From Bacteroidota bacterium (lineage in GTDB: Bacteria; Bacteroidota; Bacteroidia; Bacteroidales; NBLH01): a stretch of 64,000 nt of DNA. The position numbers and the translations under genes are program-made. Each line of letters begins with the position of its first letter. Position 1 is the first letter of the stretch. A model generated the notes under the pieces. The model made no database searches, was not told the DNA's origin, and worked only from the letters and a program-made list of their open reading frames with translations. Of this stretch, positions 12,493 through 30,281 are shown in pieces. Location: assembly GCA_039714415.1 (NCBI GenBank), contig JBDLJL010000002.1:14269-78268 (forward strand), in the 5' to 3' direction.

Positions 12493-12500
12493 ATGATCGC

Positions 12501-12537
12501 AGGGGCATTTAACCCAAACATTAGGGGCATTTACCCC
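12501..12537. promoter_or_regulatory. Two direct copies of AGGGGCATTTA(A/C)CCC spaced 22 bp apart, a candidate upstream activator site
   Basis: Read directly at 12501-12515 and 12523-12537. They lie about 230-250 bp upstream of the -24/-12-like box at 12753. Confidence 0.35.
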
Positions 12538-12752
12538 ACCTCATATTGAATTTATTTATCCATTCCTTTTTAGTTTATTTAACATGATAAAATAATCTTG
12601 TTAAAATTTATTGATTGCCAGGCGATTATCAGTTATATTAATTCAAATAAATTCACAATTAGTTAATATCAAAATATTATTTAAAAAGAGTTAACTTTCC
12701 AAATTGTCTTAAATATTTTTTAATTATCACATGTTCAGTCATATAGCCCTTT

Positions 12753-12768
12753 TGGTATATTGTTTGGA
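12753..12768 (+). promoter_or_regulatory. Weak -24/-12 (sigma54-like) box TGGTAT-ATTGT-TTGGA upstream of the tetraheme cytochrome gene
   Basis: GG and TTG have the canonical spacing, but the -12 element reads GG instead of GC. The box lies 45 nt before ATG 12813. Confidence 0.3.
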
Positions 12769-12812
12769 TTAATTAATATGCCTTCTATTTATTAATTAAA
12801 ACTATAACTAAT

Positions 12813-13439: not shown

Positions 13440-13464
13440 TAATGCTGAGGATTTAATTTTCTGG

Positions 13465-13491
13465 AAAGGCGGTTTTGAATCGCCTTTTTTT
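13465..13491 (+). terminator. Intrinsic terminator or attenuator after the tetraheme gene
   Basis: The stem is AAAGGCG / CGCCTTT with a 9-nt loop, followed by a T run. Confidence 0.55.
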
Positions 13492-13510
13492 CTTTTAAAA
13501 TTTATTTAAT

Positions 13511-14584: not shown

Positions 14585-14597
14585 ACCAATACCTTGA

Positions 14598-15440
14598 ATG
14601 CAAAAGAACAGTGGAAAATATTTATTCTTTCTTTTTGTTTTAATAAGCTCTTATTTTATAGCTTGTTCACCACAAAAAAGTTATAAGGTATTATCGTTTT
14701 TATTTGATGGTGTTCCGGAACCTTCGCCTGATAAGTTGGTTGAATTAAATGATACAGTTTATCAGACTGATAGTGTTGTAATTGCTTCAAATAGGATTTC
14801 GCAACCATTAATGTTTTACCATTCCCCTTATAAGAAAAAAGAATGTACTATTTGTCATGATCGAAATTCCATGGATAAAACGGTTGAACCCCAACCTAAA
14901 CTTTGCTATAAGTGTCATGACAACTATAATGATAAATTCGAGTTTATTCATGGCCCGGTAGGTGGTGGGTATTGTACTTCGTGTCATAATGCTCATAAAT
15001 CCAAATCTGATCATTTACTTTTAAGGTCTTCTCAACAGTTGTGCATACACTGTCATGATTCTATTTTGGTTTTTAAAAACAGGTATCATTTAAACAATGA
15101 TATATCAAATTGTATAGAATGCCATAACCCTCATGGTGGTGAAAACAGGTACATGCCTGAAAAAGGTTCCTGTTATAAATGTCATGAAAAATACAATGAA
15201 AAATTTAGCTATCTGCATGGCCCTGTGGCCGGTGAATATTGCACAACCTGTCATAGCCCGCATATGACTAAAACAAAAAAACTATTAATAATGCAAGGTT
15301 CTTCATTGTGTTTAAATTGCCATAACAAAGAATTGATTTTTGAAAGTGATCATCATAAAAATGTAGATAAGACTTGTATTGATTGTCATGATCCACATGG
15401 AGGTGAAGACAGGTTATTTATAAAAAATAAAACTCAATGA
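14598..15440 (+). CDS. Nonaheme c-type cytochrome lipoprotein (1 + 4 + 4 CXXCH, two c7/c3-like tetraheme units)
   Basis: The lipobox is IAC. Motifs are CTICH, CYKCH, CTSCH, CIHCH, CIECH, CYKCH, CTTCH, CLNCH and CIDCH. An internal duplicate is visible: CYKCH..YN.KF...HGPV.G.YCT.CH. Confidence 0.88.
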   Translation: MQKNSGKYLFFLFVLISSYFIACSPQKSYKVLSFLFDGVPEPSPDKLVELNDTVYQTDSVVIASNRISQPLMFYHSPYKKKECTICHDRNSMDKTVEPQPKLCYKCHDNYNDKFEFIHGPVGGGYCTSCHNAHKSKSDHLLLRSSQQLCIHCHDSILVFKNRYHLNNDISNCIECHNPHGGENRYMPEKGSCYKCHEKYNEKFSYLHGPVAGEYCTTCHSPHMTKTKKLLIMQGSSLCLNCHNKELIFESDHHKNVDKTCIDCHDPHGGEDRLFIKNKTQ

Positions 15441-15444
15441 ATAA

Positions 15445-17406
15445 TTGATGGGTAGGAAGCTTATATATATCATTTTATTTTTATTATTCTATGCAGATGG
15501 TATAGCTCAAAAGCCTATTGTTTCATTGGGGACATGGAAGCTAACTAAACTATATGGCGACTTTAATTTACACAGTTTTTATAGAGGAAATGAACGATCT
15601 TTTAATCAAAATTATGAATTTCATCAAAGTGGTTATTTTTCAGGGGGGCTGTGTTTAAAAACGAGAAGTTATTTTTGGGATCCTAATTTTATAACACTTG
15701 ACGTAAATGCTGAGTATAGTCCTGAAACAGGCAATGAATTTTACCTTAATATTCCTGATCGTTCAGAAGTAAGAACTCTAAAAAGACTGGATTTAAGAAC
15801 CTCAATATTCAAAAAGAATAGTCTTTCACTAAATGCTTTTGCTAATTTAAACCAAAGTATTAATAACCGGGAACTTTTAACCAGCCTAAAATCAGAAAAT
15901 AAAAGATGGGGCGGGATGTTATCATACAGGAACAAGGCACTTCCATTTACCCTTACATATAAAGAAAATTTGTGGGATCAGGAAGAAATTGCTTCAAGAA
16001 GAGTGTTCAAAATGAATCAGAAAAACTTTATGGCCAGAACTTCAAAATCCTTTTCTGATTATGATTCACACGAATTAAATTATGCTCATAATGTATATTC
16101 CCGGCAGGATGGTGATATGCAACCTATTGAAAACAATATTGATCAGATATTTTTGAAAAACAGGGTCTATTTTGATACTCAAAAGAAATATGTTTTCAGA
16201 TCGTTGATTACGGATTTTATTCAAAAAGGGAATAATGAATATAAAAGATTCCAGGTAAATGAACAATTGTTCTTAAAATTACCCCAAAAACTCTCATTAA
16301 CTGCTAATTATCAATATTACAATTTACAACAAACATCACAAAGTTTAAATCAAAACAGGCTTAAGGCCACCCTTGGCCATCAATTATTTTTAAGTTTAAA
16401 TACAAATGTGTATTATGAATATTTCAAACTTAGGCATTCCTTTTATGATGAGGCAAATACCCGGGCTGGAATAGACCTTACTTACTCAAAAAAAATACCT
16501 AAAGGTCATTTTACCCTTGCCTATAAATACTACAGGCATTACCAGGTCATGGATGCCCAAAATACTTTCATTAATGAAATAAATGAAGAACATGTTTTAT
16601 CAGATGGTCAAATTGTATTATTAAACAGACCTTATATTGATCCTGCAACAATTATTGTAAAAGATATTACCGGGACAATTATATTTCAACGTGATTTCGA
16701 CTATATTTTAATTGAAAGGAATAATTTTATTGAAATTCAACGTTTACCTGGTGGTCAAATTCCTAATAATGAAATTGTATACATTGATTATACCGCTGTT
16801 CAACCAGGCTCATATCAGTATGATGCCAATAATAATGCCTTATCAGCAAACATTATCTTATTTAACCGATTAATCGAACTGTATTTCCGGGCTTCAAAGC
16901 AAGAGTATTCAAGCTTAATAAACGTGGATCATATTACCTTAAATCGCTATACACAAACTTTAGTAGGTGGTAAAGTTGATGTTGGTTTTGCAATTGCCGG
17001 AATTGAATATGATAATTACAATAGCAATATTATTCCCTACCGTATGGTAAGATATTATATCAATCTTCAAAAAACTTTCTATAAAAGGCTTTTATGTTCT
17101 TTAAATGGGAATATTAGGGATTATGAAAAAACAACAGATAAAATACCACAACAATTTTCTGATATTTCGGGGAAAATCATTTATCGGTTTAAATTAAGAT
17201 CAAAAATCTCTTTGGAAGGAGCTTACCGAAAACAACAAGGTGATGGAATTGATTTGGATTTATTTACAGGAAGGAGTGAGTTTGAAACAAAATACCGGCA
17301 AATGATTTTTAAAGTTGGTATGAATATGTATCGTCGGAATAATATCGGTAATAAAACTGTTTTTAACAGTGTTTATGGTAAAATTATAAGAAAATTTAAA
17401 TTATAA
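15445..17406 (+). CDS. Putative outer-membrane beta-barrel (porin-like) protein of the cytochrome conduit
   Basis: It has a signal peptide (LFYADGIAQ), is 653 aa and is rich in Y/N/R/K. Alternating hydrophobic strands run to the C-terminus (IFKVGMNMYRR ... TVFNSVYGKIIRKFKL). It lies 4-8 nt from the flanking cytochrome genes. There is no recognisable enzymatic motif. Confidence 0.5.
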   Translation: MMGRKLIYIILFLLFYADGIAQKPIVSLGTWKLTKLYGDFNLHSFYRGNERSFNQNYEFHQSGYFSGGLCLKTRSYFWDPNFITLDVNAEYSPETGNEFYLNIPDRSEVRTLKRLDLRTSIFKKNSLSLNAFANLNQSINNRELLTSLKSENKRWGGMLSYRNKALPFTLTYKENLWDQEEIASRRVFKMNQKNFMARTSKSFSDYDSHELNYAHNVYSRQDGDMQPIENNIDQIFLKNRVYFDTQKKYVFRSLITDFIQKGNNEYKRFQVNEQLFLKLPQKLSLTANYQYYNLQQTSQSLNQNRLKATLGHQLFLSLNTNVYYEYFKLRHSFYDEANTRAGIDLTYSKKIPKGHFTLAYKYYRHYQVMDAQNTFINEINEEHVLSDGQIVLLNRPYIDPATIIVKDITGTIIFQRDFDYILIERNNFIEIQRLPGGQIPNNEIVYIDYTAVQPGSYQYDANNNALSANIILFNRLIELYFRASKQEYSSLINVDHITLNRYTQTLVGGKVDVGFAIAGIEYDNYNSNIIPYRMVRYYINLQKTFYKRLLCSLNGNIRDYEKTTDKIPQQFSDISGKIIYRFKLRSKISLEGAYRKQQGDGIDLDLFTGRSEFETKYRQMIFKVGMNMYRRNNIGNKTVFNSVYGKIIRKFKL

Positions 17407-17414
17407 CCATTATT

Positions 17415-19610
17415 ATGGAAGGATTTCTGTTTTCACTATTAATATGGGCTTCAAGTTTGAATCCTAATTTGGCAAATCAGGCCAATGTAAATGATATTTC
17501 CTTTTCTGAAACAAGCTATAATTATTTGGCTCAAAATACTTTAGTTGAAAATAATTGTATAGAATGTCATGAGGATGTTTTGGAATTAAAGAGAAAACAC
17601 AAAGCTGCTACAGAGGGCTGTGATAAATGCCATACGCCTAATGGAAAAGAACACCCGCTTGAGGGTGTTAAAGGCTTTTCCTTAAGCCAAAAGATTCCTG
17701 CACTGTGCTTATCTTGCCACGATAGCTTAAATTTCAAGAAAAACTTACATCAACCATCAAAAGATGGGAAATGTATTGATTGTCATTCACCACATAGCTC
17801 AAAATACAAGAACTTGTTAATTGAAAAAAAGAGTGCGAATTTGTGTAAAAAATGCCATGACCTGGAGATAAAGGAAAAGGATGTGGTACACAATCCTGTT
17901 AAAGGTGGTAGGTGTCATAAATGCCATGATCCTCATCAATCTGATTTTGATTCGTTTTTGAAAAACGACATGCCCGCTTTATGTTACCGGTGCCACGATG
18001 GCGTTGCCGAAGAAATGAAATTAAAAAGGCTGCATGCCCCTGCCAAAGAAGATTGCTTCAAATGCCATGATCCGCACAATTCTAAAGAAAGTTATTTGCT
18101 TAATGATACCATCCCTACATTGTGCTATTCATGCCATACAGATATAAAAACGAAAAAAAATATACACCAACCTGCCGGTGATGGAAAATGTAAGGACTGT
18201 CATGCCACCCATGGTTCCAAAAATAAGAAGTTGTTAAAACAAAAGAAGTCAGTAAATCTGTGTAAGGAATGCCACCAACTGGAAATAAAGGAAAAGGATG
18301 TGGTACATAATCCCGTTAAAGGTGGTAGGTGCCATAAATGCCATAATCCGCACCAATCCGATTTTGATTCGTTTTTGAAAAACGATATGCCATCTTTATG
18401 TTACAGGTGCCATGATGGTGTTGCCGAAGAAATGAAATTAAAAAGGGTGCATACAGCAGCCAAAGAAAATTGTTTAGGCTGCCACAATCCGCATAATGCT
18501 AAAGAGAGTTATTTACTTCCTGACACTATTCCAAACTTATGTTATTCTTGTCACCAGGATAAGAAAACGAAAAAAAACATTCATAAATCTTCTGTTGACG
18601 GAAAATGTAGTAGTTGTCATGTTACCCATGGTTCAAAAAACAAAAATTTGCTAAGAGAGAAGAAATCAGTAAATTTATGTAAGGAATGTCATCAACTGGA
18701 TATTCCTAAAGGAAATGTGGTACATAATCCTGTTAAAGGTGGCAGGTGCCATAAATGTCATGATTCGCATCAATCTGATTTTGATTCGTTTTTGAAAAAC
18801 GATATGCCCGCTTTATGTTTCCGTTGCCATGATGGTGTCGCAGATGCTTTAAAAACTGATAACGTTCATAAACCAGCAAAGGAAGACTGCTTTAAATGTC
18901 ACGATGCGCATAATAATAAAGAAAGTTATTTACTTCCTGATTCTGTACCAAGTTTATGCTATAGTTGTCATAAAGATTTTCAAAAAAGTATAGAAGGTAC
19001 AGCATTAGTGCATCAGGCAGTAAAAAATCAGAAATCATGTTCAAATTGTCATTCACCACATGGTTCTGCTGAGAATAATTTTTTGAAGGCAAAAGAAAAA
19101 GAGCTATGTTTAAATTGTCATAATAAAACATACAAAACAGAATCCGGAATCATTGTAAATGTTAAAAAGCAAATAGAAAACGGTAAATCTGTACATGGAC
19201 CCGTTAATAACGGATGTGTAGTTTGTCACGACCCGCATTCTTCAAAAAACCCTAACTTAATGGTCGCAAACTTTCCGGTTGGTTCATATGCTGTAGCAAA
19301 CAAAGAAAATTTTGCATTATGTTTTAATTGCCATGATATTGAGATTCTTAAAAATGAACGAAGTAAAACAGTTACCAATTTTAGGGATGGTGATTTGAAC
19401 CTTCATTTTTTACATACCAATGGCAACCGGGGAAGAAACTGTACGACATGTCATAATATGCACGCCTCTAAAAATGAGCATTTAATAGAGGATAAAGTTA
19501 TGTATGGTAATTGGAAAATGCCCATGAAATTTATAAAATTAGAAAATGGAGGATCTTGTTTTCCGGGATGTCATTCAGAAGAAAAATATGACAGAACAAG
19601 AATATGGTAA
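17415..19610 (+). CDS. Giant multiheme c-type cytochrome, 26 CXXCH plus 1 C-terminal CX3CH
   Basis: The 26 CXXCH motifs were counted in the 731-aa translation, plus CFPGCH at aa 715-720. The sequence contains almost nothing but heme-binding units. Confidence 0.9.
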   Translation: MEGFLFSLLIWASSLNPNLANQANVNDISFSETSYNYLAQNTLVENNCIECHEDVLELKRKHKAATEGCDKCHTPNGKEHPLEGVKGFSLSQKIPALCLSCHDSLNFKKNLHQPSKDGKCIDCHSPHSSKYKNLLIEKKSANLCKKCHDLEIKEKDVVHNPVKGGRCHKCHDPHQSDFDSFLKNDMPALCYRCHDGVAEEMKLKRLHAPAKEDCFKCHDPHNSKESYLLNDTIPTLCYSCHTDIKTKKNIHQPAGDGKCKDCHATHGSKNKKLLKQKKSVNLCKECHQLEIKEKDVVHNPVKGGRCHKCHNPHQSDFDSFLKNDMPSLCYRCHDGVAEEMKLKRVHTAAKENCLGCHNPHNAKESYLLPDTIPNLCYSCHQDKKTKKNIHKSSVDGKCSSCHVTHGSKNKNLLREKKSVNLCKECHQLDIPKGNVVHNPVKGGRCHKCHDSHQSDFDSFLKNDMPALCFRCHDGVADALKTDNVHKPAKEDCFKCHDAHNNKESYLLPDSVPSLCYSCHKDFQKSIEGTALVHQAVKNQKSCSNCHSPHGSAENNFLKAKEKELCLNCHNKTYKTESGIIVNVKKQIENGKSVHGPVNNGCVVCHDPHSSKNPNLMVANFPVGSYAVANKENFALCFNCHDIEILKNERSKTVTNFRDGDLNLHFLHTNGNRGRNCTTCHNMHASKNEHLIEDKVMYGNWKMPMKFIKLENGGSCFPGCHSEEKYDRTRIW
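17697..18947 (+). repeat. Three tandem in-frame 417-bp (139-aa, hexaheme) repeat units inside the 27-heme gene
   Basis: CTGGA(G/A)ATAAAGGAAAAGGATGTGGTACA recurs at 17862 and 18279, and its diverged counterpart CTGGATATTCCTAAAGGAAATGTGGTACA lies at 18696 (period 417). Long stretches are near-identical at nucleotide level. Confidence 0.85.
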
Positions 19611-22600
19611 AATATTTAAATGGAATATATATGAAACGTGTTTATAATGTGTTGATTTCTATGCAGACAATGGCTGCATTGCTTATTTTGTATATAATTG
19701 CAATGGCGGTAGCCACCTTTATTGAAAATGATTATGGTGCCCCTGTTTCAAAACACTTTGTTTATAATGCCTGGTGGTTTGAACTTATCCAGTTTCTACT
19801 GGTTGTTAATATGGTTGGAAATGTTTTTAAATATAAGTTGTATAAAAAACAAAAGTTAAGTATCCTTTTATTTCACATTGCTTTTATTATTATTCTCATT
19901 GGTGCAGGTGTAACCCGTTATATAAGTTTTGAAGGGACAATGCATATTCGTGAAGGAGAATCAAGCAACAAGATTCTTTCAGGAACATTATTGCAAATGC
20001 ATCTGTCCTCCGGTGATTTGCAGGAAAATTATAATACAGAATTGTTTATAAGTCCCGCTGTAAATACAGAGTTTTATCATGAGTTTGAGATAAATGGGAA
20101 AAAAGTTGAAGTAGAATTGAAAAATATAATCCCGAACCCAAAAGAAACTGTGGTTGAAGTTATAGATGGAAAAGCAATAATTGATATGGTATTTGCTTCA
20201 AAACAGAATATGGACAACCATTTTCTAAAAGAAAAAGCAATATTAAGTCATGGTGGGTTAAGCTTTACATTAAATGATGAAAGCAATGGTCAATCAGTAA
20301 AATTTTATACAGAGAATAAAAAGCTTTACCTGTTATCATCTTATAATTTAAGCGTGTTGGCAATGACAGGTAGTGAACTTGATACTGTTCTAATAGCAGG
20401 CGAAAAACACGAAATTCAGCTAAAGCAGTTGTATTCAATACAAAATCAGAAATTTGTTGTTACTAATTTTTATGAAAAAGCAAGAATTTCTTATGTGCCT
20501 GGCGATATGAGAAATGGTATGCAATTTTTTGCTTTGGAATTTGATATAAAAAGCGGTGTTTCAACAAAAAAAGCTGAAATAATTAGTGCTTATGGTGCGG
20601 TAGGCTACCCTGCATCAATACAAATTAATGAAATAAATGTTGACCTTGCTTACGGTGCACAGGAAATGATTTTACCTTTTGAATTGAAATTAAGAGATTT
20701 TCAACTTGAAAGATATCCGGGTTCTGAAAGTCCGTCTTCTTATGCAAGTGAAGTAACTTTATTAGATGAAAAGAATAGTATTGATATGGATTATCGCATT
20801 TTTATGAATAATGTGCTTGATTATAAAGGCTATCGTTTTTTTCAATCATCTTATGACCGTGATGAGAAGGGAACCATTTTATCAGTAAGTAAAGATAAAA
20901 CAGGAACAATGATTACCTACCTGGGATACTTTCTTCTATCACTTGGTATGCTTTGGTCATTATTAAATAAAAACAGTTATTTTATTGAACTTCTAAAAAG
21001 AACCGGGGACATTAGGGATAAGAGAAAAGGGATTGCGACCGTTATTTTGATTTTATTATTATTTGGTACTCAAAATTCTTTTGCCCAGAACACCCGACAG
21101 CATATAGATGCTGCCCATGCTAAAGAATTTGGAAAACTATTTGTTCAGGATAATGGTGGCCGTATCAAACCTTTTAACACGCTGACTAATGAACTTTTAA
21201 GAAAAATTTCAAGAAAAGAAGAGCTGCTGGGGTTAAACTCAAATCAAGTTTATTTGGGTATGATATTTAACCCGGTGTTCTGGAAAGATGTTAAAATGAT
21301 AAAAATCAAAAACCAGGAGTTAAAAGATTTGTTGGGTGTAGTGGGCTCATATGTGTCATTTAATGATCTGGTTAACCTGGAAAAAAATGAATACAAGTTA
21401 AAATCATATGTTGAGATGGCTTTTAATAAGGAGCTATCCCAAAGGAGTAAGTTTGACAAAGATGTAATTACAGTAGATGAACGTTTAAATATTTCTTATC
21501 AGGTTCTTTCTGGTGCATACCTCAAAGTTTTTCCTATACCCGATGAAATAAATCACAAATGGTTAAACCCTTCTGGAAATAAACATATTAAAGATAGTGT
21601 TGACAGGCAGTTTGTGGCCGGTGTGTTTTCAGCATATTTTAATGCGGTTGTGGCATCTGAAAAATCTGGTGATTGGGCTAAGCCAAATGAAATTCTAAAA
21701 AGTATTAAAGATTTTCAGATGAAATATGGTTCAGAAATTATTCCATCAGAAACTAAACTTAAGTTAGAGGTTCATTACATTAATGCTGATATTTTTAATA
21801 GAATTTACATGTACTATGGAATCATTGGGTTCGTTTTTTTAATTGTTTTATTTGTGGGCATTTTAAAGCCAAAAATGAATATAAAAATATTCACAACCCT
21901 TGCCAGTATTTTGTTGGGGGTTCTCTTTTTGTTCCATACTTATGGTTTAGGTTTACGATGGTACATTTCTGATCATGCCCCCTGGAGCAATGGATATGAA
22001 TCTATGATTTATATTGCCTGGGCTACAATGCTTGCCGGCTTTTTGTTCATGAAACGTTCACCAATAACGCTGGCGGCTACCTCATTATTGGCATCTATCA
22101 CCTTGATGGTGGCCCATTTAAGTTGGATGAACCCTGAAATAACCAACTTAGTACCTGTATTAAAGTCGTACTGGTTAACTATTCATGTATCCGTTATAAC
22201 AGCAAGTTATGGATTTTTGGCCTTGGCTGCATTGCTTGGGTTTTTAAGCCTAATTCTAATTATTTTACAAACTAATAAAAATAAGGAACAAATAAACCTG
22301 ACCATTGAGGAAATAACAAATGTTAACCATATGGCAATTATTGTGGGATTGTATTTGTTAACTATTGGTGCATTTTTAGGTGGGGTGTGGGCTAATGAAT
22401 CCTGGGGCAGGTATTGGGGCTGGGACCCTAAAGAAACATGGGCTTTAATAACAATAATTGTTTATTCTTTCGTAACCCATACTCGCTTAATACCATTTTT
22501 GAACAATAGGTATACTTATAACCTACTCTCTTTATTAAGTTTTTCTTCAGTTTTAATGACCTATTTTGGTGTTAACTATTACTTGTCCGGATTGCATTCT

Positions 22601-22732
22601 TATGCCTCTGGCGATCCTGTTCCTGTTCCAGCTTATGTTTATTATATCTTAGCTATAATTTTTATAATTTCAATAGTAGCATTTTTTAAAAATTCAAAGA
22701 CTAAAGAAGAAAAGGTTTCCATATCAGTATAA
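19604..22732 (+). CDS. ccsBA: Fused System II cytochrome c synthetase CcsBA (ResB-like N-terminus plus CcsA C-terminus); alternative start at 19631
   Basis: The ResB-type N-terminus is SMQTMAALLILYIIAMAVATFIEN. The C-terminal WWD motif is WGRYWGWDPKETWAL, with multiple TM segments. ATG 19604 overlaps the stop of the 27-heme gene (ATGGTAA). Confidence 0.85.
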   Translation: MVKYLNGIYMKRVYNVLISMQTMAALLILYIIAMAVATFIENDYGAPVSKHFVYNAWWFELIQFLLVVNMVGNVFKYKLYKKQKLSILLFHIAFIIILIGAGVTRYISFEGTMHIREGESSNKILSGTLLQMHLSSGDLQENYNTELFISPAVNTEFYHEFEINGKKVEVELKNIIPNPKETVVEVIDGKAIIDMVFASKQNMDNHFLKEKAILSHGGLSFTLNDESNGQSVKFYTENKKLYLLSSYNLSVLAMTGSELDTVLIAGEKHEIQLKQLYSIQNQKFVVTNFYEKARISYVPGDMRNGMQFFALEFDIKSGVSTKKAEIISAYGAVGYPASIQINEINVDLAYGAQEMILPFELKLRDFQLERYPGSESPSSYASEVTLLDEKNSIDMDYRIFMNNVLDYKGYRFFQSSYDRDEKGTILSVSKDKTGTMITYLGYFLLSLGMLWSLLNKNSYFIELLKRTGDIRDKRKGIATVILILLLFGTQNSFAQNTRQHIDAAHAKEFGKLFVQDNGGRIKPFNTLTNELLRKISRKEELLGLNSNQVYLGMIFNPVFWKDVKMIKIKNQELKDLLGVVGSYVSFNDLVNLEKNEYKLKSYVEMAFNKELSQRSKFDKDVITVDERLNISYQVLSGAYLKVFPIPDEINHKWLNPSGNKHIKDSVDRQFVAGVFSAYFNAVVASEKSGDWAKPNEILKSIKDFQMKYGSEIIPSETKLKLEVHYINADIFNRIYMYYGIIGFVFLIVLFVGILKPKMNIKIFTTLASILLGVLFLFHTYGLGLRWYISDHAPWSNGYESMIYIAWATMLAGFLFMKRSPITLAATSLLASITLMVAHLSWMNPEITNLVPVLKSYWLTIHVSVITASYGFLALAALLGFLSLILIILQTNKNKEQINLTIEEITNVNHMAIIVGLYLLTIGAFLGGVWANESWGRYWGWDPKETWALITIIVYSFVTHTRLIPFLNNRYTYNLLSLLSFSSVLMTYFGVNYYLSGLHSYASGDPVPVPAYVYYILAIIFIISIVAFFKNSKTKEEKVSISV

Positions 22733-22889: not shown

Positions 22890-23588
22890 CTATTTTGCTA
22901 CTGCTTCTTCAATTAATATTTCATATGAATATCCGTATCCAAAATCTCTGTCCAGAACAACTTTTCCTTCAATAGTTACAATATCCCCAACTTTAAATTC
23001 CTGGTTTGAAGTAACAACTAAATCAAATTTTCCGTTATAATCTGTTCCGTCCTGAAGGTGGATCCAGTTTTTTTTCATAATTGCGGCATTATATTTTGTA
23101 ACCTGCCCCCTTATTTTTACAGTTTTGCCTGCAATTTTTTCTTTAGATGAAAATAATTCAGAAATTGTTATCCCACCTTCGGCAGGATCTATTTTAACTT
23201 CATTTCTTACCACGGTTGATTTTACAGTAGAAGTATAAGTTGTTGCCTGGGCTACATTTTTGGTATCAGCAGGGCTGGTTGCCACTTTTTCCAGGAAAAA
23301 GACCGATTCAAAGTTTCTCCCCAATTCTTTACTATGAAAATCTTTCATTTCCATGCCACCTTCGTAATAGTAAGTTCCGCCTATTTCTGCCTGCATTTTT
23401 GGTACAGCCAGCCAGTTATCCATATCATTTTCTTTTACACGAAGGTAAGTATATGAACTTGTTTGAATCACTTCCTGAAGGACTACTTTATGAATTCTTG
23501 AATTATTTGTATTTGATTGTTCCTGATTTTGATCCTGGCAGCTTGAAATTAATAAGATTAAACCAATTTGAATTAAAAAAAGTCTCAT
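22890..23588 (-). CDS. Lipoprotein of unknown function, with a possible OB-fold-like C-terminal half
   Basis: The lipobox is ISSC. The C-terminal segment KTVKIRGQVTKYN...WIHLQDGT...DIVTIEGKVVLDRDFGYGYSYEILIEEA resembles periplasmic OB-fold proteins, but this is not a secure match. Confidence 0.35.
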   Translation of the reverse strand: MRLFLIQIGLILLISSCQDQNQEQSNTNNSRIHKVVLQEVIQTSSYTYLRVKENDMDNWLAVPKMQAEIGGTYYYEGGMEMKDFHSKELGRNFESVFFLEKVATSPADTKNVAQATTYTSTVKSTVVRNEVKIDPAEGGITISELFSSKEKIAGKTVKIRGQVTKYNAAIMKKNWIHLQDGTDYNGKFDLVVTSNQEFKVGDIVTIEGKVVLDRDFGYGYSYEILIEEAVAK

Positions 23589-23777
23589 ATTATTTCTTTT
23601 TAATGATTATTAATTAAGGTTATAAAATTATCTATAAAATTCTTTAATAACTACTATTATGCTTGTTAAAATCACTGTTATAAAATATTTTGTAACATAC
23701 AAAAATTAGAAATCCCAGGAATTATTTCCGGACAACTTTATAAGATCTTATTAAGCCTCCCTTTTTTTTAAAGAATA

Positions 23778-23812
23778 GGGCTATATGACCCTATTGTTGG
23801 GTTATATGACAT
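23778..23812. promoter_or_regulatory. Direct repeat GGGCTATATGACCC / GGGTTATATGACAT with 21-bp period, a candidate activator site
   Basis: Read directly. The reverse complement GTCATATAGCCC also occurs at 12738-12749. Confidence 0.35.
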
Positions 23813-23922
23813 AATTCAATTAAGCTAAAAAATGGTTTTAAATCCACTTCGCAAATTTTTATTCATCCTGAATAGCTTAATACATAGGGCTTGTGGCTAC
23901 CTGTGATTTTAAATTAAATTAT

Positions 23923-23938
23923 GGGTATAGTATTTGGT
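23923..23938 (+). promoter_or_regulatory. Weak -24/-12-like box GGGTAT-AGTAT-TTGGT upstream of the FeS/NrfD operon
   Basis: It matches the box at 12753 at 12 of 16 positions. It lies about 140 nt before ATG 24080. Confidence 0.25.
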
Positions 23939-24079
23939 TTTACCGAAATTTATAATCAGAACTTATGAAAACATTTATAATTTCTTTTAATAGTTATGCA
24001 CATATAAAATTGAATAAAAAGTAAAACAATATAGTCAATTAATAGATAGAAACTTAATTATTTCAAAATCAAATAAATT

Positions 24080-25075
24080 ATGCCTAAAGGTGAAAAAAAC
24101 AAAGAATCCTCCCGAAGAAAATTCTTGAGGTCAGGACTTGCAATAGGCGCAGGTACAGTAATTGGTGGAGGATTATTATCGTCTTGTTCAAAATCAAATG
24201 CACAAGATAATACGAACAATAAAAATGTTGAAAAGATTAAACTACTTACAACAGACGGTAAAATTGTTGAAGTAGAAAGAACAAAGCTTAGCCCAATAAC
24301 ACCAAGCGAACCGGCTGTTGGTGATGAAGCAAGAAAAGGGATACCGGGAAGAAAATTTGTAATGGTAATTGATCTTTCCAAATGTGCAAATGCCGGGAAA
24401 TGTACTACTAATTGTCAAAGTGGCCATAAACTAGAGCCCGGTCAGGAATATATGAGTGTATTTTTGATGAAAGACCATCAGTATAGTGATCCGTACTGGT
24501 TTCCTAAAAACTGCTACCATTGTGACAATCCATCTTGCGTAAAAGTTTGTCCTGTAGGTGCCACTTTTAAACGATCAGATGGATGTGTATTGGTAGATGC
24601 TGACAGATGTATTGGATGCAAATTTTGTGTTTCTGCTTGTCCATATTCAGCCAGGATATTTAATTGGAAAGCAGCAATTTCTGAACTTAATGCAGAAAAG
24701 GCTGAAGTAGAAAAAGAGAAAGAATTTTCACCGGAAACAGGTCTCCCTCATCAAATGGGAACGGTTACTAAATGTGATTTCTGTCCGGATAGGAGTAGGG
24801 AAGGGAAATTGCCATACTGTGTTACGGGTTGTCCAATGGGAGCCATATACTTTGGTGATGAAAATGAAGATGCTATATCAAATGGTACTGAAACTTTGCG
24901 TTTCAGAGAAACCATTGAGAATAAGGCAGGGTATCGGTATATGGAAGAACTGGGTACGAAACCAAGGGTTTACTATTTACCTCCGGTTGACAAAACTTAC
25001 CCATATGAAAAGGGCTTGAAAAATCTTACTGAGGAACAATTATTAAAATATAAAAACATACTCGATAAATCATAA
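24080..25075 (+). CDS. Tat-exported 4Fe-4S cluster protein (NrfC/PsrB/ActB-FeS-like)
   Basis: The twin-arginine signal is SRRKFLRSGLAIGAG. Ferredoxin-type cysteine groups include CYHCDNPSCVKVCP, CIGCKFCVSACP and CDFC...CVTGCP. Confidence 0.85.
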   Translation: MPKGEKNKESSRRKFLRSGLAIGAGTVIGGGLLSSCSKSNAQDNTNNKNVEKIKLLTTDGKIVEVERTKLSPITPSEPAVGDEARKGIPGRKFVMVIDLSKCANAGKCTTNCQSGHKLEPGQEYMSVFLMKDHQYSDPYWFPKNCYHCDNPSCVKVCPVGATFKRSDGCVLVDADRCIGCKFCVSACPYSARIFNWKAAISELNAEKAEVEKEKEFSPETGLPHQMGTVTKCDFCPDRSREGKLPYCVTGCPMGAIYFGDENEDAISNGTETLRFRETIENKAGYRYMEELGTKPRVYYLPPVDKTYPYEKGLKNLTEEQLLKYKNILDKS

Positions 25076-25080
25076 TAGCT

Positions 25081-26427
25081 ATGAAAATGAACACAGTAAA
25101 TAAACAATATAAGGAAGTTTTAGGTGATTTTCTTCCTAATTTAGGAAAACCAGACAGAAAATGGATTATCCAGGTAATTATTTTGTTACTAATAATAGGA
25201 GTAGGGCTGCTCGCTTTTGCCTACCAGCTTATTGAGGGGCAGATTGTAACCGGAATGCGCGATAATGTGGTTTTGGCTGTTTATATAGTAAATTTTATAT
25301 TTTTTATAGGTCTAAGTTATGCTGGGGCTTTAATTGCCGGTATTTTTCATTTAGGGGGTATAAACTGGGGTCGCCCCTTGCTCAGGATACTTGAAATTAT
25401 TACGCTTACATCTTTAATTGTTGGACCGGTTTTTATATTGGTATGTATAGGACGTCCGGAACGTTTTTTATATATGTTTATCTATGCACGGTTTCAGTCA
25501 CCTCTTATTTGGGATGTTATTGCTATTGTATCTGACTTGTTTTTTTGTATTGTATATTTAAATTTCACTTACATAAAAGATTTTGCAAAGCTTCGTGATT
25601 GCTCAGAATTGAAAGTTTCCAATTGGAGGAGGAAAATTTATACAATTTTTGCATGGGGTTATAATAATACAAAAAAGCAGGAAAAACTACTCAACCAGGC
25701 GCAAAATATAATGGCCGCTATCATTATACCAACTTCAATTATTGCTTATTCCTTATTAGCATGGCTTTTTGGTATGAATCAGCGTCCCGGGTGGCACAAC
25801 AGTATTTTTGCCCCTTATTTTGTACTAACCGCTGTTTATTCAGGGATTGCCCTTTTAATAATAATTATGTGGTACTACAGGAAATATTTTAAACTTGAAA
25901 AATATATTACCAAAGAACATTTTAATTATTTGGGATTTACCTTGCTTATTCTGGCTCTTTTCTACGGTTATTTTTCATTTAGCGAATATATTACGGAGTG
26001 GTATAATTCTCAAAAAACAACGAGTATCCTGTTGGATAAGTATTGGGATTTTTCAGAATATGGCTTTATGTTTTTGGTCTCAAATATTTTGGCAGCTATT
26101 CTACCCATAATTATTATAGGGTTTCCGAAATTTAGATCTGTTAATAGTATTACCATTAGCTCGGCTTTAATTTTATTTGCTCTATGGCTTAAAAGATATT
26201 TGATTGTGGTTCCATCGCTTGAAACGCCATATATCCCTATTCAGGATTACCGGGAGGAGTGGATACATTATTCTGCTACCTGGGTAGAGTGGGCTTTAAC
26301 CTTGGGGGGAATTTCTTTTTTCATCCTTGTATTTGTTTTAATGTCAAAACTTGCCCCGATTATTCCTGTATCTGAAATGGAAGAAAAGGCCAGGGGGATC
26401 AGGATTTTTTATAAAACAAGGGAATGA
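25081..26427 (+). CDS. NrfD/PsrC/ActC-family integral membrane quinol-interacting subunit
   Basis: 448 aa with about 10 predicted TM helices. It starts 5 nt after the FeS gene, and the N-terminal region is NrfD-like (AVYIVNFIFFIGLSYAGALIAG). Confidence 0.75.
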   Translation: MKMNTVNKQYKEVLGDFLPNLGKPDRKWIIQVIILLLIIGVGLLAFAYQLIEGQIVTGMRDNVVLAVYIVNFIFFIGLSYAGALIAGIFHLGGINWGRPLLRILEIITLTSLIVGPVFILVCIGRPERFLYMFIYARFQSPLIWDVIAIVSDLFFCIVYLNFTYIKDFAKLRDCSELKVSNWRRKIYTIFAWGYNNTKKQEKLLNQAQNIMAAIIIPTSIIAYSLLAWLFGMNQRPGWHNSIFAPYFVLTAVYSGIALLIIIMWYYRKYFKLEKYITKEHFNYLGFTLLILALFYGYFSFSEYITEWYNSQKTTSILLDKYWDFSEYGFMFLVSNILAAILPIIIIGFPKFRSVNSITISSALILFALWLKRYLIVVPSLETPYIPIQDYREEWIHYSATWVEWALTLGGISFFILVFVLMSKLAPIIPVSEMEEKARGIRIFYKTRE

Positions 26428-26440
26428 TTATTTTAAACTT

Positions 26441-26513
26441 GCGGTTCTTCCGCTATGACGGAACAGGCTATCTGGAAACTAAAAATAATTAAAAAATAAA
26501 CAGATGAAAATCA
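26441..26513. repeat. About 70-bp intergenic element, copy 2, running into the start codon of 26504
   Basis: GCGGTTCTTCCGC ... GGCTATCTGG ... AATAATTAAAAAATAAACAGATGAAAA matches 9444-9512 and 9566-9616. Confidence 0.7.
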
Positions 26514-27373
26514 AAAATATAATATTCAGTATTGCATTTATGCTGTTTTTAATAAACAATATGGCTATTGCCCAAGATAAAAAAAAGGACAATAAGCCCA
26601 AAAAGGTAAGGTTAAAATTAGAATACCTAAAATTAGAAGATGGTACAAAAGTATTGAGTTCAGTCTTGTATTGGAAAGATGGTAAGGACATCAACCCGGT
26701 TATTGATCAGGAAGTATCCTTTATTGCAGAAGATGATTCATCAGAATTGAAATTGGGAACTATATTGTCTAATAAAGAAGGTAAAGCAATTTTACATATT
26801 GAAAAAGACTTTAAATTTCCTGAAAATAAAAATGGCTTTACTGTTTTTACTGCGAAAATGAAAAAAAGCGATAATTATAAAAGGGCTAAAAAGTCAGTTG
26901 AAATAAAAGATGCAGATCTTGATTTTTCTCTGGATATTATTGATTCTGTCAAATTTGTGCAAGTCAAAGTTACAACTTTAGATAGTGTTGGTCAAACCAT
27001 TCCTATAAAAAGCTCTGAGGTATACGTATATGTAAAAAGGCTATATAGTTTATATCCTGTAAAGAAAGGTTATACGAATGAAAATGGGCAATTCAAAGTT
27101 GAATTCCCTACTGATATGCCTGGAGACTCTGTTGGAAATTTAAGAATAATTGTAAAAGTTCTTGATAGTGATGAGTATGGCACTATAGAAAAAGCAAAGG
27201 AAGCCCGGTGGGGAACTATTGTGTCTTTCAATGATGAAGATACTCCAAGGGCATTATGGGGTGTTGAAGCCCCTCTATGGATGATAATAGCCATATTTGT
27301 TGTGCTTGCAGGTGCGTGGTTTAATTTTGGCCTGGCAATTTATAAAGTGAACAAAATGAGAAAAGCCAATTAA
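26504..27373 (+). CDS. Signal-peptide protein with beta-rich (Ig/CarboxypepD_reg-like?) body and a C-terminal TM anchor; function unknown
   Basis: The signal peptide ends at AQD. The C-terminal helix is PLWMIIAIFVVLAGAWFNFGLAIY. It sits between the NrfD-like gene and the monoheme cytochrome gene. Confidence 0.45.
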   Translation: MKIKNIIFSIAFMLFLINNMAIAQDKKKDNKPKKVRLKLEYLKLEDGTKVLSSVLYWKDGKDINPVIDQEVSFIAEDDSSELKLGTILSNKEGKAILHIEKDFKFPENKNGFTVFTAKMKKSDNYKRAKKSVEIKDADLDFSLDIIDSVKFVQVKVTTLDSVGQTIPIKSSEVYVYVKRLYSLYPVKKGYTNENGQFKVEFPTDMPGDSVGNLRIIVKVLDSDEYGTIEKAKEARWGTIVSFNDEDTPRALWGVEAPLWMIIAIFVVLAGAWFNFGLAIYKVNKMRKAN

Positions 27374-27485
27374 TAACCGGTTTTAAGTTAAAGCTTAATG
27401 GCCAGTTCTGAGTTGGTTTATCAAGCTTAAGTAAAATTGAACTATATTTTATTATTTTATTTATTAATTATTAAAAAGAATTGTT

Positions 27486-27905
27486 ATGAAAGTGTTAAAA
27501 AAAATGAAGTTTTTATTTATGAGTATCTTGTTTGCTGGTGGAGGTTTTATACTAATTTCTATGACAAATGATATTCAGGATGACTGGCCCGTACCGGCAG
27601 AATATAAGAACATGAAAAACCCGATGGCTGGTAAGGCTGATGCAAGTAATGTTGGTAAAACCCTGTATAAAGAACATTGCGAATCATGCCATGGTAAAGA
27701 AGGTTATGGTGATGGTAAAAAATCCGGTGAACTAGATACGGAAATGAGGGATATTACATCTGCAGAAGTTCAAGGTCAAACAGATGGTGAATTATACTAC
27801 AAAAGCTTTATTGGTAGAGACGAAATGCCAAATTATGAAAAGAAAATACCTTCCAAAGATGACCGATGGAGAGTCGTTAACTATTTGAGAACGATGAAGG
27901 AATAA
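27486..27905 (+). CDS. Membrane-anchored monoheme class I cytochrome c
   Basis: It has a single CESCH, a downstream methionine region (GRDEMPNY) and an N-terminal TM helix. Confidence 0.8.
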   Translation: MKVLKKMKFLFMSILFAGGGFILISMTNDIQDDWPVPAEYKNMKNPMAGKADASNVGKTLYKEHCESCHGKEGYGDGKKSGELDTEMRDITSAEVQGQTDGELYYKSFIGRDEMPNYEKKIPSKDDRWRVVNYLRTMKE

Positions 27906-28479: not shown

Positions 28480-28650
28480 TAAAGATTTTTTTAAATCTAA
28501 ACGCTAAAATTAGTCCAGGAATATTTTATCCGTCATTTTAGGGATAACATTTAATTCAGTAGCTGTCCTATAAAGTTCCCGGATGGCTTTTTTCCCATTT
28601 TCACCCAAATCCAATGAATACTCATTTACATACAGTTCAATATGTTTGAA
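28480..28650. repeat. Right copy of the direct repeat (relic of the last 9 tadA codons plus the true 3' end of mqnD)
   Basis: cgt AAAGATTTTTTTAAATCTAAACGCTAA reproduces the tadA tail (KDFFKSKR-stop). The remainder is the 3' end of the intact mqnD. Confidence 0.8.
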
Positions 28651-29340
28651 CATTATATCCTCATCCATTTCCTGGGCATATTGTTTAATAAAAGGTAAAC
28701 CGGCAGTGGGGTTTTCATAAGCATATTCAAGGCTTTTTCTTAGCACACGGTTTACTTTTTGCTGTACCTCAAGTGACAATTTCCTGTTTATAACAATTCC
28801 ACCTAATGGAATAGGCAATTTTGTTTTAGTTTCCCAAAACTCACCAAGGTCAATTATTTTTTTCAAGCCTTTTTGCGCATAAGTAAAGCGGTTTTCGTGA
28901 ATAATTAATCCTGCATCCACTTCGTTTGATAAAACAGCCTCTTCAATATCTGAAAACAAGTATTCTTTTTTATTTTTAGCATCGGGATAAGCAATGCTCA
29001 ACAATAAATTTGCAGTTGTATATTTACCAGGTATTGCAATAGAAATATCTTTTATTTCATCCGGATAAATTTTGTTTTTACTTAATAAAAGAGGGCCATT
29101 GTTATTTCCTAATGCACTACCCGAATCAAGTAAGACATAATTATCAGAGATATATGCATAAGCATGATAACTAAGTTTGGTTATATCAATCTCATGATCA
29201 AAGGCAGCTTTGTTAAGCTCCTCTACATCTGCAAGTACCAATTCAAATTCAAGCCCTTCTGTATCAATACGGTGATGCACCATGGCATCAAAAATAAAGG
29301 TGTCGTTAGGGCAGGTTGAAAATCCGAGTTTTAGTTTCAT
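28510..29340 (-). CDS. mqnD: 1,4-dihydroxy-6-naphthoate synthase (futalosine pathway); start taken at MKLKLGFSTCPNDTF
   Basis: LGFSTCPNDTFIFDAMVH, DITKLSYHAY and SGSALG are typical of MqnD. Confidence 0.75.
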   Translation of the reverse strand: MKLKLGFSTCPNDTFIFDAMVHHRIDTEGLEFELVLADVEELNKAAFDHEIDITKLSYHAYAYISDNYVLLDSGSALGNNNGPLLLSKNKIYPDEIKDISIAIPGKYTTANLLLSIAYPDAKNKKEYLFSDIEEAVLSNEVDAGLIIHENRFTYAQKGLKKIIDLGEFWETKTKLPIPLGGIVINRKLSLEVQQKVNRVLRKSLEYAYENPTAGLPFIKQYAQEMDEDIMFKHIELYVNEYSLDLGENGKKAIRELYRTATELNVIPKMTDKIFLD

Positions 29341-29548
29341 ACTTCTGTTTTTTAATTTTAATGTGTTGTCTGCAAAGCCAGGGTGTGGCTCATTATCAAA
29401 CAGTTTGTCATAACAAATATTGCTCACTTTAAATTGAAAAGCCACGCCCTGGCTATAAGATGTTTAATTCCTCTTTTTTGCGTTTTAAATCTTAAAGGGA
29501 TTCTTATGTATATCTATGCTATCAGTTTATTAAGGCCACCTCTAAAAA

Positions 29549-30226
29549 TTAATTTATACTTTTTAAAAGCTCTTTACAATAATTATTTAATTTATTTATC
29601 GCCAGTGGTATATCCCAATTATCCTTATTTCGTTCCTCAACATAATTTGAAATAGATCGAATTTGAACAAAAGGCACATTTTCCATAAGGCAAACATAAA
29701 ATACTGCAGCCCCTTCCATGTTTTCAATATCTGCATCAAACTTTTTCTTTAATTTTTCAATTTCTTTTTTGTTACCATTTACTGTATTTACAGTTATTCC
29801 ATTAACTTGTTTTAACTCAATTGACAATATGTTCTTATAACCTGAGTTTTTTAACTTTCCATCCTTAAAGGGGAATTTGTCTGGTTTCATGAAACCAGAA
29901 TCAAAAAGCGTGGAAAATGAATCCTTTGAACGTACGCCAAGATCAGCAAACTCTTCAGTTTCAATTTGTACTACTTCGCCAATATTTAATTGGTCAGTAA
30001 GACTGCCGGCAATTCCTGTATTAAGAACTAAATCATATTTTTTTTTATTTAATGAATTGGTTAAAGAGTAGATAGTGAATGCTATACCTATTCCTGATAT
30101 CAATATGTCAATTGAATTTTCCTTTATTTTTTTACTGTAAAATTTTTCATCAATTTGGGTAAATTGAAATTCATCAATTATTTTCTCAATTTCAAAGATT
30201 GTGGCTGATATGATTAAAATTTGCAT
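29549..30226 (-). CDS. mqnB: Futalosine hydrolase (PNP/UDP-type nucleosidase); start taken at MQILIISAT
   Basis: MQILIISATIFE, SGIGIAFT, NTGIAGS and NMEGAAV are present, and it is adjacent to mqnD. Confidence 0.65.
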   Translation of the reverse strand: MQILIISATIFEIEKIIDEFQFTQIDEKFYSKKIKENSIDILISGIGIAFTIYSLTNSLNKKKYDLVLNTGIAGSLTDQLNIGEVVQIETEEFADLGVRSKDSFSTLFDSGFMKPDKFPFKDGKLKNSGYKNILSIELKQVNGITVNTVNGNKKEIEKLKKKFDADIENMEGAAVFYVCLMENVPFVQIRSISNYVEERNKDNWDIPLAINKLNNYCKELLKSIN

Positions 30227-30281
30227 ATTATTTTTACAGTTTAGATAAATTGCCAATATTTGTACTTTAAAACAAAGATAA

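Follow-up and report, generated by a model that had tools for sequence, protein, structure and literature searches.

A conserved FeS-NrfD-Ig protein-cytochrome c module of Bacteroidota, a candidate menaquinol:cytochrome c oxidoreductase without a molybdopterin subunit

The present analysis deals with four adjacent genes in a stretch of 64,000 nucleotides (the window) from a Bacteroidota bacterium of the order Bacteroidales (GenBank assembly GCA_039714415.1, contig JBDLJL010000002.1, positions 14,269 to 78,268). An earlier annotation of this DNA, made from the letters without database searches and called the sequence-only reading here, had described the set as an iron-sulfur (FeS) protein, an NrfD-like membrane protein, a beta-rich protein with a signal peptide and a C-terminal membrane anchor, and an anchored monohaem cytochrome c. 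All four open reading frames (ORFs) were recovered at their positions on the plus strand, and their identities are supported by Pfam with the exception of the third, which we refer to as X. The locus comprises the following features:

23589-24079, plus strand: 491-bp non-coding region 5′ of the FeS gene, read directly; presumed promoter region of the operon
24080-25075, plus strand: FeS gene, 331 aa; four-cluster ferredoxin exported by the twin-arginine (Tat) pathway (Pfam Fer4_11)
25081-26427, plus strand: NrfD gene, 448 aa; ActC-type integral membrane subunit of the NrfD family (Pfam NrfD, PF03916)
26504-27373, plus strand: X gene, 289 aa; signal peptide, two immunoglobulin (Ig)-like domains, C-terminal transmembrane helix
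27486-27905, plus strand: cytochrome c gene, 139 aa; monohaem, class I, one CESCH motif

The genes are co-directional and separated by 5, 76 and 112 bp, and because the gene preceding the FeS gene lies on the opposite strand, they look like one operon. Promoter scans delivered 31 sigma-70 sites where 27 are expected, which is not above chance, and 21 sigma-54 matches where 26 are expected, none of which beats chance; in these scans there was no sign of a co-regulation of the four genes with the sigma-54 two-component system further upstream. Two additional ORFs within or opposite the FeS gene, of 107 aa (24058-24381, minus strand) and 81 aa (24774-25019, plus strand), are probably spurious.

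Related loci were collected by scanning one genome per GTDB species with an alignment of 11 X sequences as query. The scan returned 80 loci, which together with three contexts fetched earlier give 81 non-redundant loci from other genomes in which the gene order FeS-NrfD-X-cytochrome c recurs. They span Bacteroidales, Marinilabiliaceae, Rikenellaceae, Cytophagales, Cyclobacteriaceae, Flavobacteriales, Saprospiraceae, Lewinellaceae and Chitinophagales, and include one metagenome-assembled genome of the Calditrichota. An NrfD gene is located directly upstream of X in 94 of 96 X genes, the other two lying at contig ends, so that the co-occurrence of X-type with NrfD-type genes, proposed as a check by the sequence-only reading, was found in all 94 testable cases. 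The FeS gene precedes this NrfD gene in 90 of 94 cases; the other four are again at contig ends (90/90 testable). Directly downstream of the 96 X genes we detected a cytochrome c gene 76 times, a further FeS-NrfD-X unit 11 times, a contig end three times and something else six times. This four-gene arrangement is far beyond chance, and the module is an old, well-conserved, Bacteroidota-wide family of its own.

Tandem arrays of FeS-NrfD-X units usually contain one cytochrome c gene, placed after the last unit, a pattern in which FeS-NrfD-X would be the core, with the cytochrome c as its partner. An exception is locus L073, with three units that are all accompanied by a cytochrome c gene. Duplicated or triplicated units were observed in L001, L011, L013, L030, L032, L039, L044, L060, L073, L077 and L080; by analogy to ActC and ActF, the two NrfD-type subunits of Alternative Complex III (ACIII), they could reflect hetero-oligomers that contain two NrfD subunits. 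Some Bacteroidales loci carry, convergent to the module, another FeS-NrfD pair which is shorter (NrfD of about 410 aa) and comes without an X gene (L040:6761-8962, L048:11313-13492 and L083:9100-11277; minus strand).

X starts with a cleavable-looking signal peptide (residues 1-24, AIA↓QD). The sequence-only description of this protein is borne out by an AlphaFold2 model (predicted local distance difference test score, pLDDT, 88.2), in which two tandem Ig-like beta-sandwiches (residues 33-135 and 137-238) are followed by a hydrophobic transmembrane helix (258-287) and a basic tail assigned to the cytoplasm. The linker between the Ig domains and this helix carries a near-invariant APLWM motif, and the second Ig domain (Ig2) and the transmembrane segment are more conserved than the first (Ig1). 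With zero Cys and one His in the window protein, X is predicted to carry no redox cofactor; in the family alignment of 46 sequences no Cys or His is conserved. Neither Pfam nor NCBIfam holds a family for X, and only weak Big_1 and lipoprotein matches far below the cut-off were obtained. An X profile found nothing among the PDB sequences at E < 0.01 and no ACIII chain up to E 10. Comparison of the model with the PDB by Foldseek gave generic tandem-Ig proteins only (adhesin repeats, intimin D0-D1, transglutaminase C-terminal domains and macroglobulins), all with template modelling (TM) scores < 0.3. The earlier statement that this protein matches no ACIII subunit thus holds for sequence profile and fold alike. 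An exhaustive HMMER search assigned 1215 clusters at 50% identity to the family, 464 of them at E of 1e-30 or better, and relatives with a source name are called 'hypothetical', except for one UniRef entry labelled 'DUF916'.

In part of the family, X is fused to NrfD. A search with the natural fusion protein P0251 (757 aa), combined with a Pfam check, revealed at least 55 distinct 90%-identity clusters of NrfD-X fusions with 735-754 aa. Between the end of NrfD and the first Ig domain, these proteins still have a hydrophobic, signal-like segment together with an AxA↓Q[D/E] site. This agrees with ActC-type proteins, in which the C-terminus is cytoplasmic (PMC8076601, PMC5928083). The invariable position of X directly after NrfD in the testable genes, together with these fusions, is strong evidence from gene organisation that X acts as a physical, stoichiometric partner and true subunit of NrfD.

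The NrfD protein itself matches Pfam NrfD with 2.9e-31 (109.7 bits; cut-off 25.8). Its top PDB match is ActC of the ACIII from Flavobacterium johnsoniae (6btm_C, 1.1e-41, residues 7-439), and four ActC chains are its best PDB matches over the full length (1e-41 to 1e-36), ActF being far weaker. PsrC was neither among the sequence matches at E < 0.01 nor among the Foldseek matches at E <= 0.001. The best NCBIfam match is DsrP with 75.8 bits at a cut-off of 350, and QrcD reaches 42.5 bits at a cut-off of 570. The fold was judged on a model (AlphaFold2, pLDDT 85.4) of P0251, whose NrfD part is 61% identical to the window protein, with an alignment anchored by 57 natural NrfD-X fusions. This model has ten transmembrane helices and superimposes on ActC with TM-scores of 0.83-0.85 and root-mean-square deviations (rmsd) of 3.2-4.2 Å (best 6f0k_C, TM-score 0.85, rmsd 3.2 Å), compared to TM-scores of 0.60-0.68 on ActF. 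A hydropathy scan of the window protein gave nine segments at the threshold used; on the basis of the P0251 model and the full-length ActC alignment, we infer ten helices also for this protein.

In ActC, 23 residues are more than 95% conserved, comprising the quinol site (His139, Ser164, Asp169 and Asp253) and both half-channels (PMC8076601). Mapped by alignment, 12 of these 23 are kept in the window protein. Within the NrfD family (n=93), Ser140 and Asp145 of the quinol site are invariant and the gate residue Arg372 is present in 90 members; ActC His139 is replaced by Cys or Asp and ActC Asp253 by Leu or Ile throughout the family. Proton pumping through NrfD is possible, since the channel residues Arg372, Glu302, Arg102, Asp167, Arg172 and Asp173 are kept in the window protein, but uncertain, since half of the ActC channel residues are changed. 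Judged by its sequence, the membrane subunit of the window is ActC-like, yet not an ActC, and it is predicted to be the menaquinol-binding subunit with a possible proton channel. Identity among the top 120 relatives amounts to 55-89%, and their public names are generic ('polysulfide reductase NrfD', 'molybdoenzyme membrane anchor' or 'HybB-like').

The FeS protein consists of ferredoxin domains only. It carries the Tat motif SRRKFL at residues 11-16 and a lipobox-like LLSSC with Cys36, and a Tat motif is present in 92/92 full-length members of its family. The match to Pfam Fer4_11 is clear (1.5e-22; 80 bits, cut-off 26.2), and no named NCBIfam family reaches its curated cut-off: DsrO comes first with 160 bits (159.9; cut-off 200), followed by TtrB (134 bits; 416), NrfC (TIGR03149, 113 bits; 377.6), ArrB (112 bits; 450), QrcC (110.9 bits; 400) and HmcB (76 bits; 420). 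The closest solved structure is PsrB (2vpw_B, 3.4e-29). The C-terminal domain of ActB is matched with 3.2e-17, covering ActB residues 797-1027 only.

Fifteen Cys residues are invariant in the 93 members of the FeS family. Motifs II to IV are canonical (C145/148/153/157, C177/180/183/187 and C232/235/247/251 in the window protein), and in motif I (C102-x5-C108-x3-C112) the second Cys is replaced by Ala105. The family motif reads C-x-N-A-[R/G]-K-C-x3-C, with Ala at the second Cys position in 86/93 members; five solved relatives, namely PsrB, ArrB, EbdB, 4ydd_B and ActB, keep this Cys. In four-cluster ferredoxins of the NarH and PsrB type, the Cys residues of motif I hold the cluster that is most distant from the membrane subunit, and the loss of the second Cys is the classical signature of a [3Fe-4S] cluster. 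Because motif I contains three Cys only, the distal cluster of this family is probably a [3Fe-4S] cluster, likely of higher potential and situated at the electron-exit end. In ActB the second Cys is lost in motif III instead (CIGTRYCSNNCP), which matches the +140 mV reported for its membrane-proximal cluster (PMC5928083); in the window FeS protein motif III is complete. Two further traits of the family are a conserved N-terminal extension of ~45 residues before motif I (EKIK[LV]LTTDGK[IV][IV]EV...; residues about 46-90, window 24215-24350), which is absent from PsrB and ArrB, and a 30-residue FNW-containing insert between motifs III and IV, as in ActB.

The cytochrome c has its CESCH motif at residues 65-69 and a Met ligand region with DEMP. 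It carries no lipobox, and its N-terminal hydrophobic segment (residues 9-27) would function as a signal peptide or as a signal anchor. Matches were obtained to Pfam Cytochrom_C and Cytochrome_CBB3 and, in the PDB, to cytochrome c552 (1.8e-14) and to ActE (6btm_E, 2.1e-07). The family is highly conserved, with a single CxxCH in 89/89 members.

The sequence-only reading had seen no catalytic subunit in this set, and it had named a molybdopterin gene adjacent to orthologous modules as an observation that would speak against its interpretation. A Pfam scan of all window ORFs >= 550 aa detected no molybdopterin enzyme in the 64 kb; these ORFs encode a TonB receptor, the cytochrome c maturation protein CcsBA, two multihaem cytochromes, an aspartyl-tRNA synthetase, a subtilase and a 653-aa protein without family. 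No molybdopterin Pfam family was found either among the ORFs >= 550 aa within 10 kb in the 81 related loci, so that the view of a set without catalytic subunit is upheld for both. In the 83 fetched loci, the large ORFs encode CcsBA, acyl-CoA dehydrogenase, NrfD-X fusions and 24 small clusters, mostly singletons. Two of these clusters had been identified earlier; for the remaining 22, Pfam was searched with representative sequences. They are housekeeping or transport proteins, with no molybdopterin, NiFe-hydrogenase or NosZ family among them. In addition, no quinol dehydrogenase of the NapC/NirT or the cytochrome b type was found in the 64-kb window.

The module belongs to the NrfD superfamily (PF03916) and contains a four-cluster ferredoxin, and it fits none of the known systems ACIII, NrfCD, DsrMKJOP, QrcABCD and Psr/Ttr/Arr. 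The similarities to ACIII (ActABCDEF; PDB 6BTM, 6F0K, 6LOD and 8K9E) are manifold: NrfD is nearest to ActC and the modelled homologue has the ten-helix ActC fold, the gate Arg is retained together with Ser and Asp of the quinol site, the alignment of the FeS protein to the ActB2 domain takes in the FNW-containing insert, ActE has a relative in the monohaem cytochrome, and the complex would likewise face the periplasm without an active molybdenum site. However, the module has no pentahaem ActA, no molybdopterin-like ActB1 domain, no second NrfD subunit ActF and no ActD. ActB measures about 950-1040 aa with its fused B1 domain, compared to 331 aa for the FeS protein. The three-Cys motif is motif I (distal) in the module and motif III (membrane-proximal) in ActB, NrfD keeps 12/23 signature residues of ActC, the cytochrome has no lipobox, and X with its two Ig domains and transmembrane helix has no counterpart in ACIII. 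When fused to NrfD, X would share the in-out-in topology of the two-helix ActD (PMC5928083), but with a 200-residue Ig-Ig insert in the periplasmic loop; a homology of X to ActD was not detected.

With NrfCD (of NrfABCD) and DsrOP (of DsrMKJOP), the module has in common a Tat-exported four-cluster ferredoxin and a cofactor-less NrfD protein which serve periplasmic cytochromes and not a molybdoenzyme. It differs from them in its scores, which stay below the cut-offs of NrfC, DsrO and DsrP, and in the ten helices of the modelled NrfD homologue, compared to eight in E. coli NrfD and also in PsrC (PMC8076601). There is no NrfA or NrfB among the window ORFs scanned, and no DsrM, DsrK or DsrJ among the neighbour genes. 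To our knowledge, no X-like subunit occurs in NrfCD or DsrOP systems. QrcABCD, Hmc and Nhc combine an FeS protein and a ten-helix NrfD-like subunit with periplasmic c-type cytochromes as well, their molybdenum site being absent or degenerate. Here, too, the scores of QrcC, QrcD and HmcB are below the cut-offs, and Qrc, unlike the module, keeps the molybdopterin-like QrcB and the hexahaem QrcA and transfers electrons from cytochrome c3 to menaquinone. PsrABC, TtrABC and ArrABC possess a four-cluster ferredoxin with an NrfD-family anchor, and PsrB is the best solved match of the FeS protein. In contrast to these enzymes, the module is without a catalytic A subunit, its motif I is without the second Cys kept by PsrB and ArrB, and TtrB and ArrB remain below their cut-offs. 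Membership of the Psr/Ttr clade, the other observation named against the sequence-only reading, did not emerge: NrfD is nearest to ActC and not to PsrC or TtrC, and the FeS protein is below the TtrB, NrfC, QrcC, DsrO, ArrB and HmcB cut-offs. NosGH/NosC1C2 of clade II nos clusters were considered as closest analogue and ruled out, since NosGH is of the NapGH and not of the NrfCD type (PMC8139620). Of the earlier idea of a stripped-down ACIII/Qrc/NrfCD-type complex, the ActC-like NrfD and the missing catalytic subunit stand. A recent loss does not, in view of a three-Cys motif I of its own (86/93) and an obligate subunit of its own which is often fused.

Bacteroidota use menaquinone, and electrons run energetically downhill from menaquinol (about -75 mV) to a class-I cytochrome c. 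With a probability of about 0.6, we read the four genes as encoding a membrane-bound menaquinol:cytochrome c oxidoreductase of the NrfD/four-cluster-ferredoxin type without a molybdopterin subunit, forming a distinct Bacteroidota-wide family. ACIII is such a menaquinol:cytochrome c oxidoreductase, and its quinol site is 10-12 Å away from the nearest FeS cluster (PMC5928083). In the proposed mechanism, menaquinol would be oxidised at a periplasmic site of NrfD formed with the invariant Ser140 and Asp145, and the protons from the quinol would be released to the periplasm. Electrons would enter the membrane-proximal [4Fe-4S] cluster of the FeS protein, be conducted through its four clusters and leave from the distal one with three Cys, which probably is a higher-potential [3Fe-4S] cluster. 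The membrane-tethered monohaem cytochrome c would accept them and pass them on to periplasmic multihaem cytochromes. X would be a stoichiometric structural or docking subunit without cofactor, whose C-terminal helix and Ig2 sit on NrfD and the FeS protein; by analogy to ACIII, it may take the place of ActD or of the ActB1 domain, or form a docking platform. From homology and gene neighbourhood we infer a link of the module to the multihaem chain of the window, where the acceptors would be the adjoining 26-, 11-, 9- and 4-haem proteins and a putative outer-membrane protein. Two of the neighbouring genes are located as follows:

17415-19610, plus strand: multihaem cytochrome c, 731 aa, 26 CxxCH motifs (Paired_CXXCH_1, 1e-135; DmsE-like); candidate downstream acceptor
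19604-22732, plus strand: CcsBA, a ResB and CcsA fusion, 1042 aa; system II cytochrome c maturation (Pfam ResB and Cytochrom_C_asm; NCBIfam CcsB)

The CcsBA gene starts before the stop of the 26-haem cytochrome gene, with an overlap of 7 bp suggestive of translational coupling. Two NHL proteins with six-bladed propellers are encoded in between the cytochromes of the region 6417-19610 (11, 4, 9 and 26 CxxCH motifs), which looks like an extracellular electron transfer locus of the porin-cytochrome type. Among its multihaem genes lies the gene of the 653-aa signal-peptide protein without family, possibly an outer-membrane barrel, and a histidine kinase with a sigma-54 response regulator is encoded at 9608-12492. 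For the 232-aa lipoprotein encoded at 22890-23588 (minus strand), a weak OB-fold (tRNA_anti-codon) match was the sole family match. Its gene is conserved in this divergent position beside the module in L004, L005 and L006, and lies in the vicinity in L072. About 600 bp downstream of the module, at 28510-30256 (minus strand), we found an MqnA-family gene (PF02621) and the gene of an MqnB-like PNP_UDP_1 nucleosidase, both of the futalosine pathway by which menaquinone is made. Other parts of the window encode SusC/SusD and type-IX-secretion tail domains, which, taken with the nearest relatives, point to an origin in Bacteroidota and probably in Bacteroidales.

The nearest relative with flanks, L004, shows the same order as the window, with multihaem cytochromes, CcsBA, OB-fold lipoprotein and module, and homologues of the 26-haem cytochrome are found upstream of its module. 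Among the 41 long loci, for which at least 15 kb were fetched, a cytochrome with four or more haems is present in 35 and CcsBA in 30. Over all 81 loci, CcsBA is encoded within 10 kb in 41. Near the module, 52 loci have a small lipoprotein with CxxCH or Cx3-4CH and 57 a DUF5777 outer-membrane barrel. A cytochrome b561 (PhsC-like) is encoded in 25 loci and its partner, a seven-haem protein whose transmembrane helix is C-terminal, in 24, a hexahaem lipoprotein is found within 10 kb in 46, and a Crp/Fnr regulator adjoins the module in 36. Apart from CcsBA, these accessory genes (DUF5777, small lipoprotein cytochrome, seven-haem/b561 pair, hexahaem lipoprotein and Crp) were not found in the 64-kb window. 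FeS-NrfD-X(-cytochrome c) is constant, and the multihaem partner set is variable.

Several of these neighbours form recurrent arrangements. A lipoprotein of ~125 aa with a variable haem-type motif (CxxCH, Cx3CH or Cx4CH) and a weak PSCyt1 match is paired with a DUF5777 'membrane bound beta barrel' directly upstream of the FeS gene in L002:6304-7546, L003:5518-7654 and 50+ other loci. This combination calls a split porin-cytochrome to mind; DUF5777 was not mentioned in the literature searched. Another pair stands directly upstream of the module in about 25 Bacteroidales loci, among them L040:1410-3046, L041 and L045; here the gene of a seven-haem cytochrome is followed by that of a four-helix cytochrome b561 (PhsC-like, 176 bits). 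With an architecture that matches the description of Geobacter CbcA/CbcB, this pair would be a second quinol-oxidising unit of the cluster. The hexahaem lipoprotein (~364 aa; L002:5064-6194 and 45 other loci) carries an N-terminal collagen-like G-x-x repeat and a conserved C-terminal HNPxY...ALL motif. As a recognisable reductase it was rejected, because its similarity to NrfA and octahaem nitrite reductase is non-significant (Pfam C552 8e-4; 8rv0 E=0.044).

A number of points weigh against the assignment as menaquinol:cytochrome c oxidoreductase. Activity, direction and partners are computational predictions, and the [3Fe-4S] cluster is predicted from the missing Cys. With the changes at His139 and Asp253, the quinol site may work differently from that of ActC. 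The comparison with Act, Qrc and Nrf subunits by profile and structure, as recommended by the sequence-only reading, gave a divided result: NrfD is nearest to ActC, and the FeS protein scores DsrO, PsrB and TtrB higher than ActB, so that only one of the two core subunits leads to ACIII. Moreover, most related loci carry accessory genes missing from the window, and the acceptor may therefore differ between lineages.

The direction in particular could be the opposite one. In a Qrc-like operation, electrons from periplasmic or extracellular donors would reach menaquinone via cytochromes c, with the proton path of NrfD using the membrane potential to drive the uphill step, a mode that would be appropriate for electron uptake or the oxidation of Fe(II). 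Among the best family-model matches are QrcCD and DsrOP, two systems that either reduce the menaquinone pool or exchange with it, the conserved Arg, Glu and Asp channel residues would permit coupling to the proton-motive force, and the small lipoprotein cytochrome and DUF5777 barrel preceding the module in 52-57 of the 81 loci recall split porin-cytochrome uptake systems. We nevertheless regard this direction as unlikely: a monohaem class-I cytochrome c with His/Met ligation is normally far more positive than menaquinone, which makes the reaction strongly uphill. The DUF5777/small-cytochrome pair was not found in the window, and ActC, the closest structural relative, is part of a quinol oxidase (PMC5928083). 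We are slightly more sceptical about an NrfCD-like quinol dehydrogenase that is dedicated to an unrecognised periplasmic multihaem reductase, for example of a nitrogen or sulfur oxyanion, with the catalytic cytochrome encoded nearby; the module would then be neither a general reductase of cytochrome c nor a feeder of extracellular electron transfer. Such a role has a precedent in NrfCD of E. coli (PMC8076601), and the hexahaem lipoprotein, with its weak similarity to the C-terminal region of NrfA and octahaem nitrite reductase, and the Crp/Fnr regulator adjoining the module speak in its favour. However, these similarities are not significant, no hexahaem homologue was found in the 64 kb, and the module is equally conserved in loci without the hexahaem protein.

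The public labels 'polysulfide reductase NrfD' and 'molybdoenzyme membrane anchor', as well as PsrB as top solved match of the FeS protein, would suggest yet another origin, namely a decayed molybdoenzyme operon of the Psr/Ttr/Arr type which has lost its catalytic gene and in which X is an unrelated surface protein co-located by chance. This can be regarded as effectively excluded. A molybdopterin gene occurs in 0/81 loci, at least 55 clusters have X and NrfD joined in one reading frame, and the NrfD identities of 55-89% (top 120) together with the 15 invariant Cys of the FeS family point to purifying selection on the module. The modelled fold has ten helices of the ActC type, and PsrC has eight (PMC8076601).

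Beyond the oxidoreductase assignment, it is a tentative and rather doubtful possibility that FeS-NrfD-X represents an unrecognised phylum-wide quinol oxidoreductase family with an obligate tandem-Ig third subunit which forms, together with its recurrent neighbours, a Bacteroidota-specific envelope-spanning conduit. These neighbours may include the lipoprotein cytochrome with DUF5777, the CbcAB-like pair, the hexahaem lipoprotein, Crp/Fnr and a dedicated CcsBA. If so, a common route of extracellular or periplasmic electron exchange would exist in a phylum seen mostly as fermenters and aerobic polymer degraders. The use of a cofactor-less NrfD protein with a four-cluster ferredoxin for periplasmic cytochromes is known already from NrfCD, DsrOP, QrcCD, Hmc, Nhc and the ACIII core. 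What is new here is the obligate Ig-like third subunit, the distal three-Cys cluster and the minimal composition. We know of no cofactor-less tandem-Ig membrane subunit in any NrfD-type complex, and no description of the FeS-NrfD-X module was found in the searchable literature, the coverage of which is incomplete, so that an earlier description is possible.

Many anaerobic respiratory enzymes couple to quinones through NrfD-type modules, whose mode of energy conservation is still debated. As a minimal version with three subunits, none of them catalytic or pseudo-catalytic, the present module would lend itself as a simple model for quinone coupling. The family comprises more than 1000 clusters at 50% identity, with X left as 'hypothetical' in public records. 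It points to an unstudied respiratory capacity in Bacteroidota of sediments, marine and engineered habitats, where the module adjoins multihaem cytochromes of the kind used in extracellular electron transfer.

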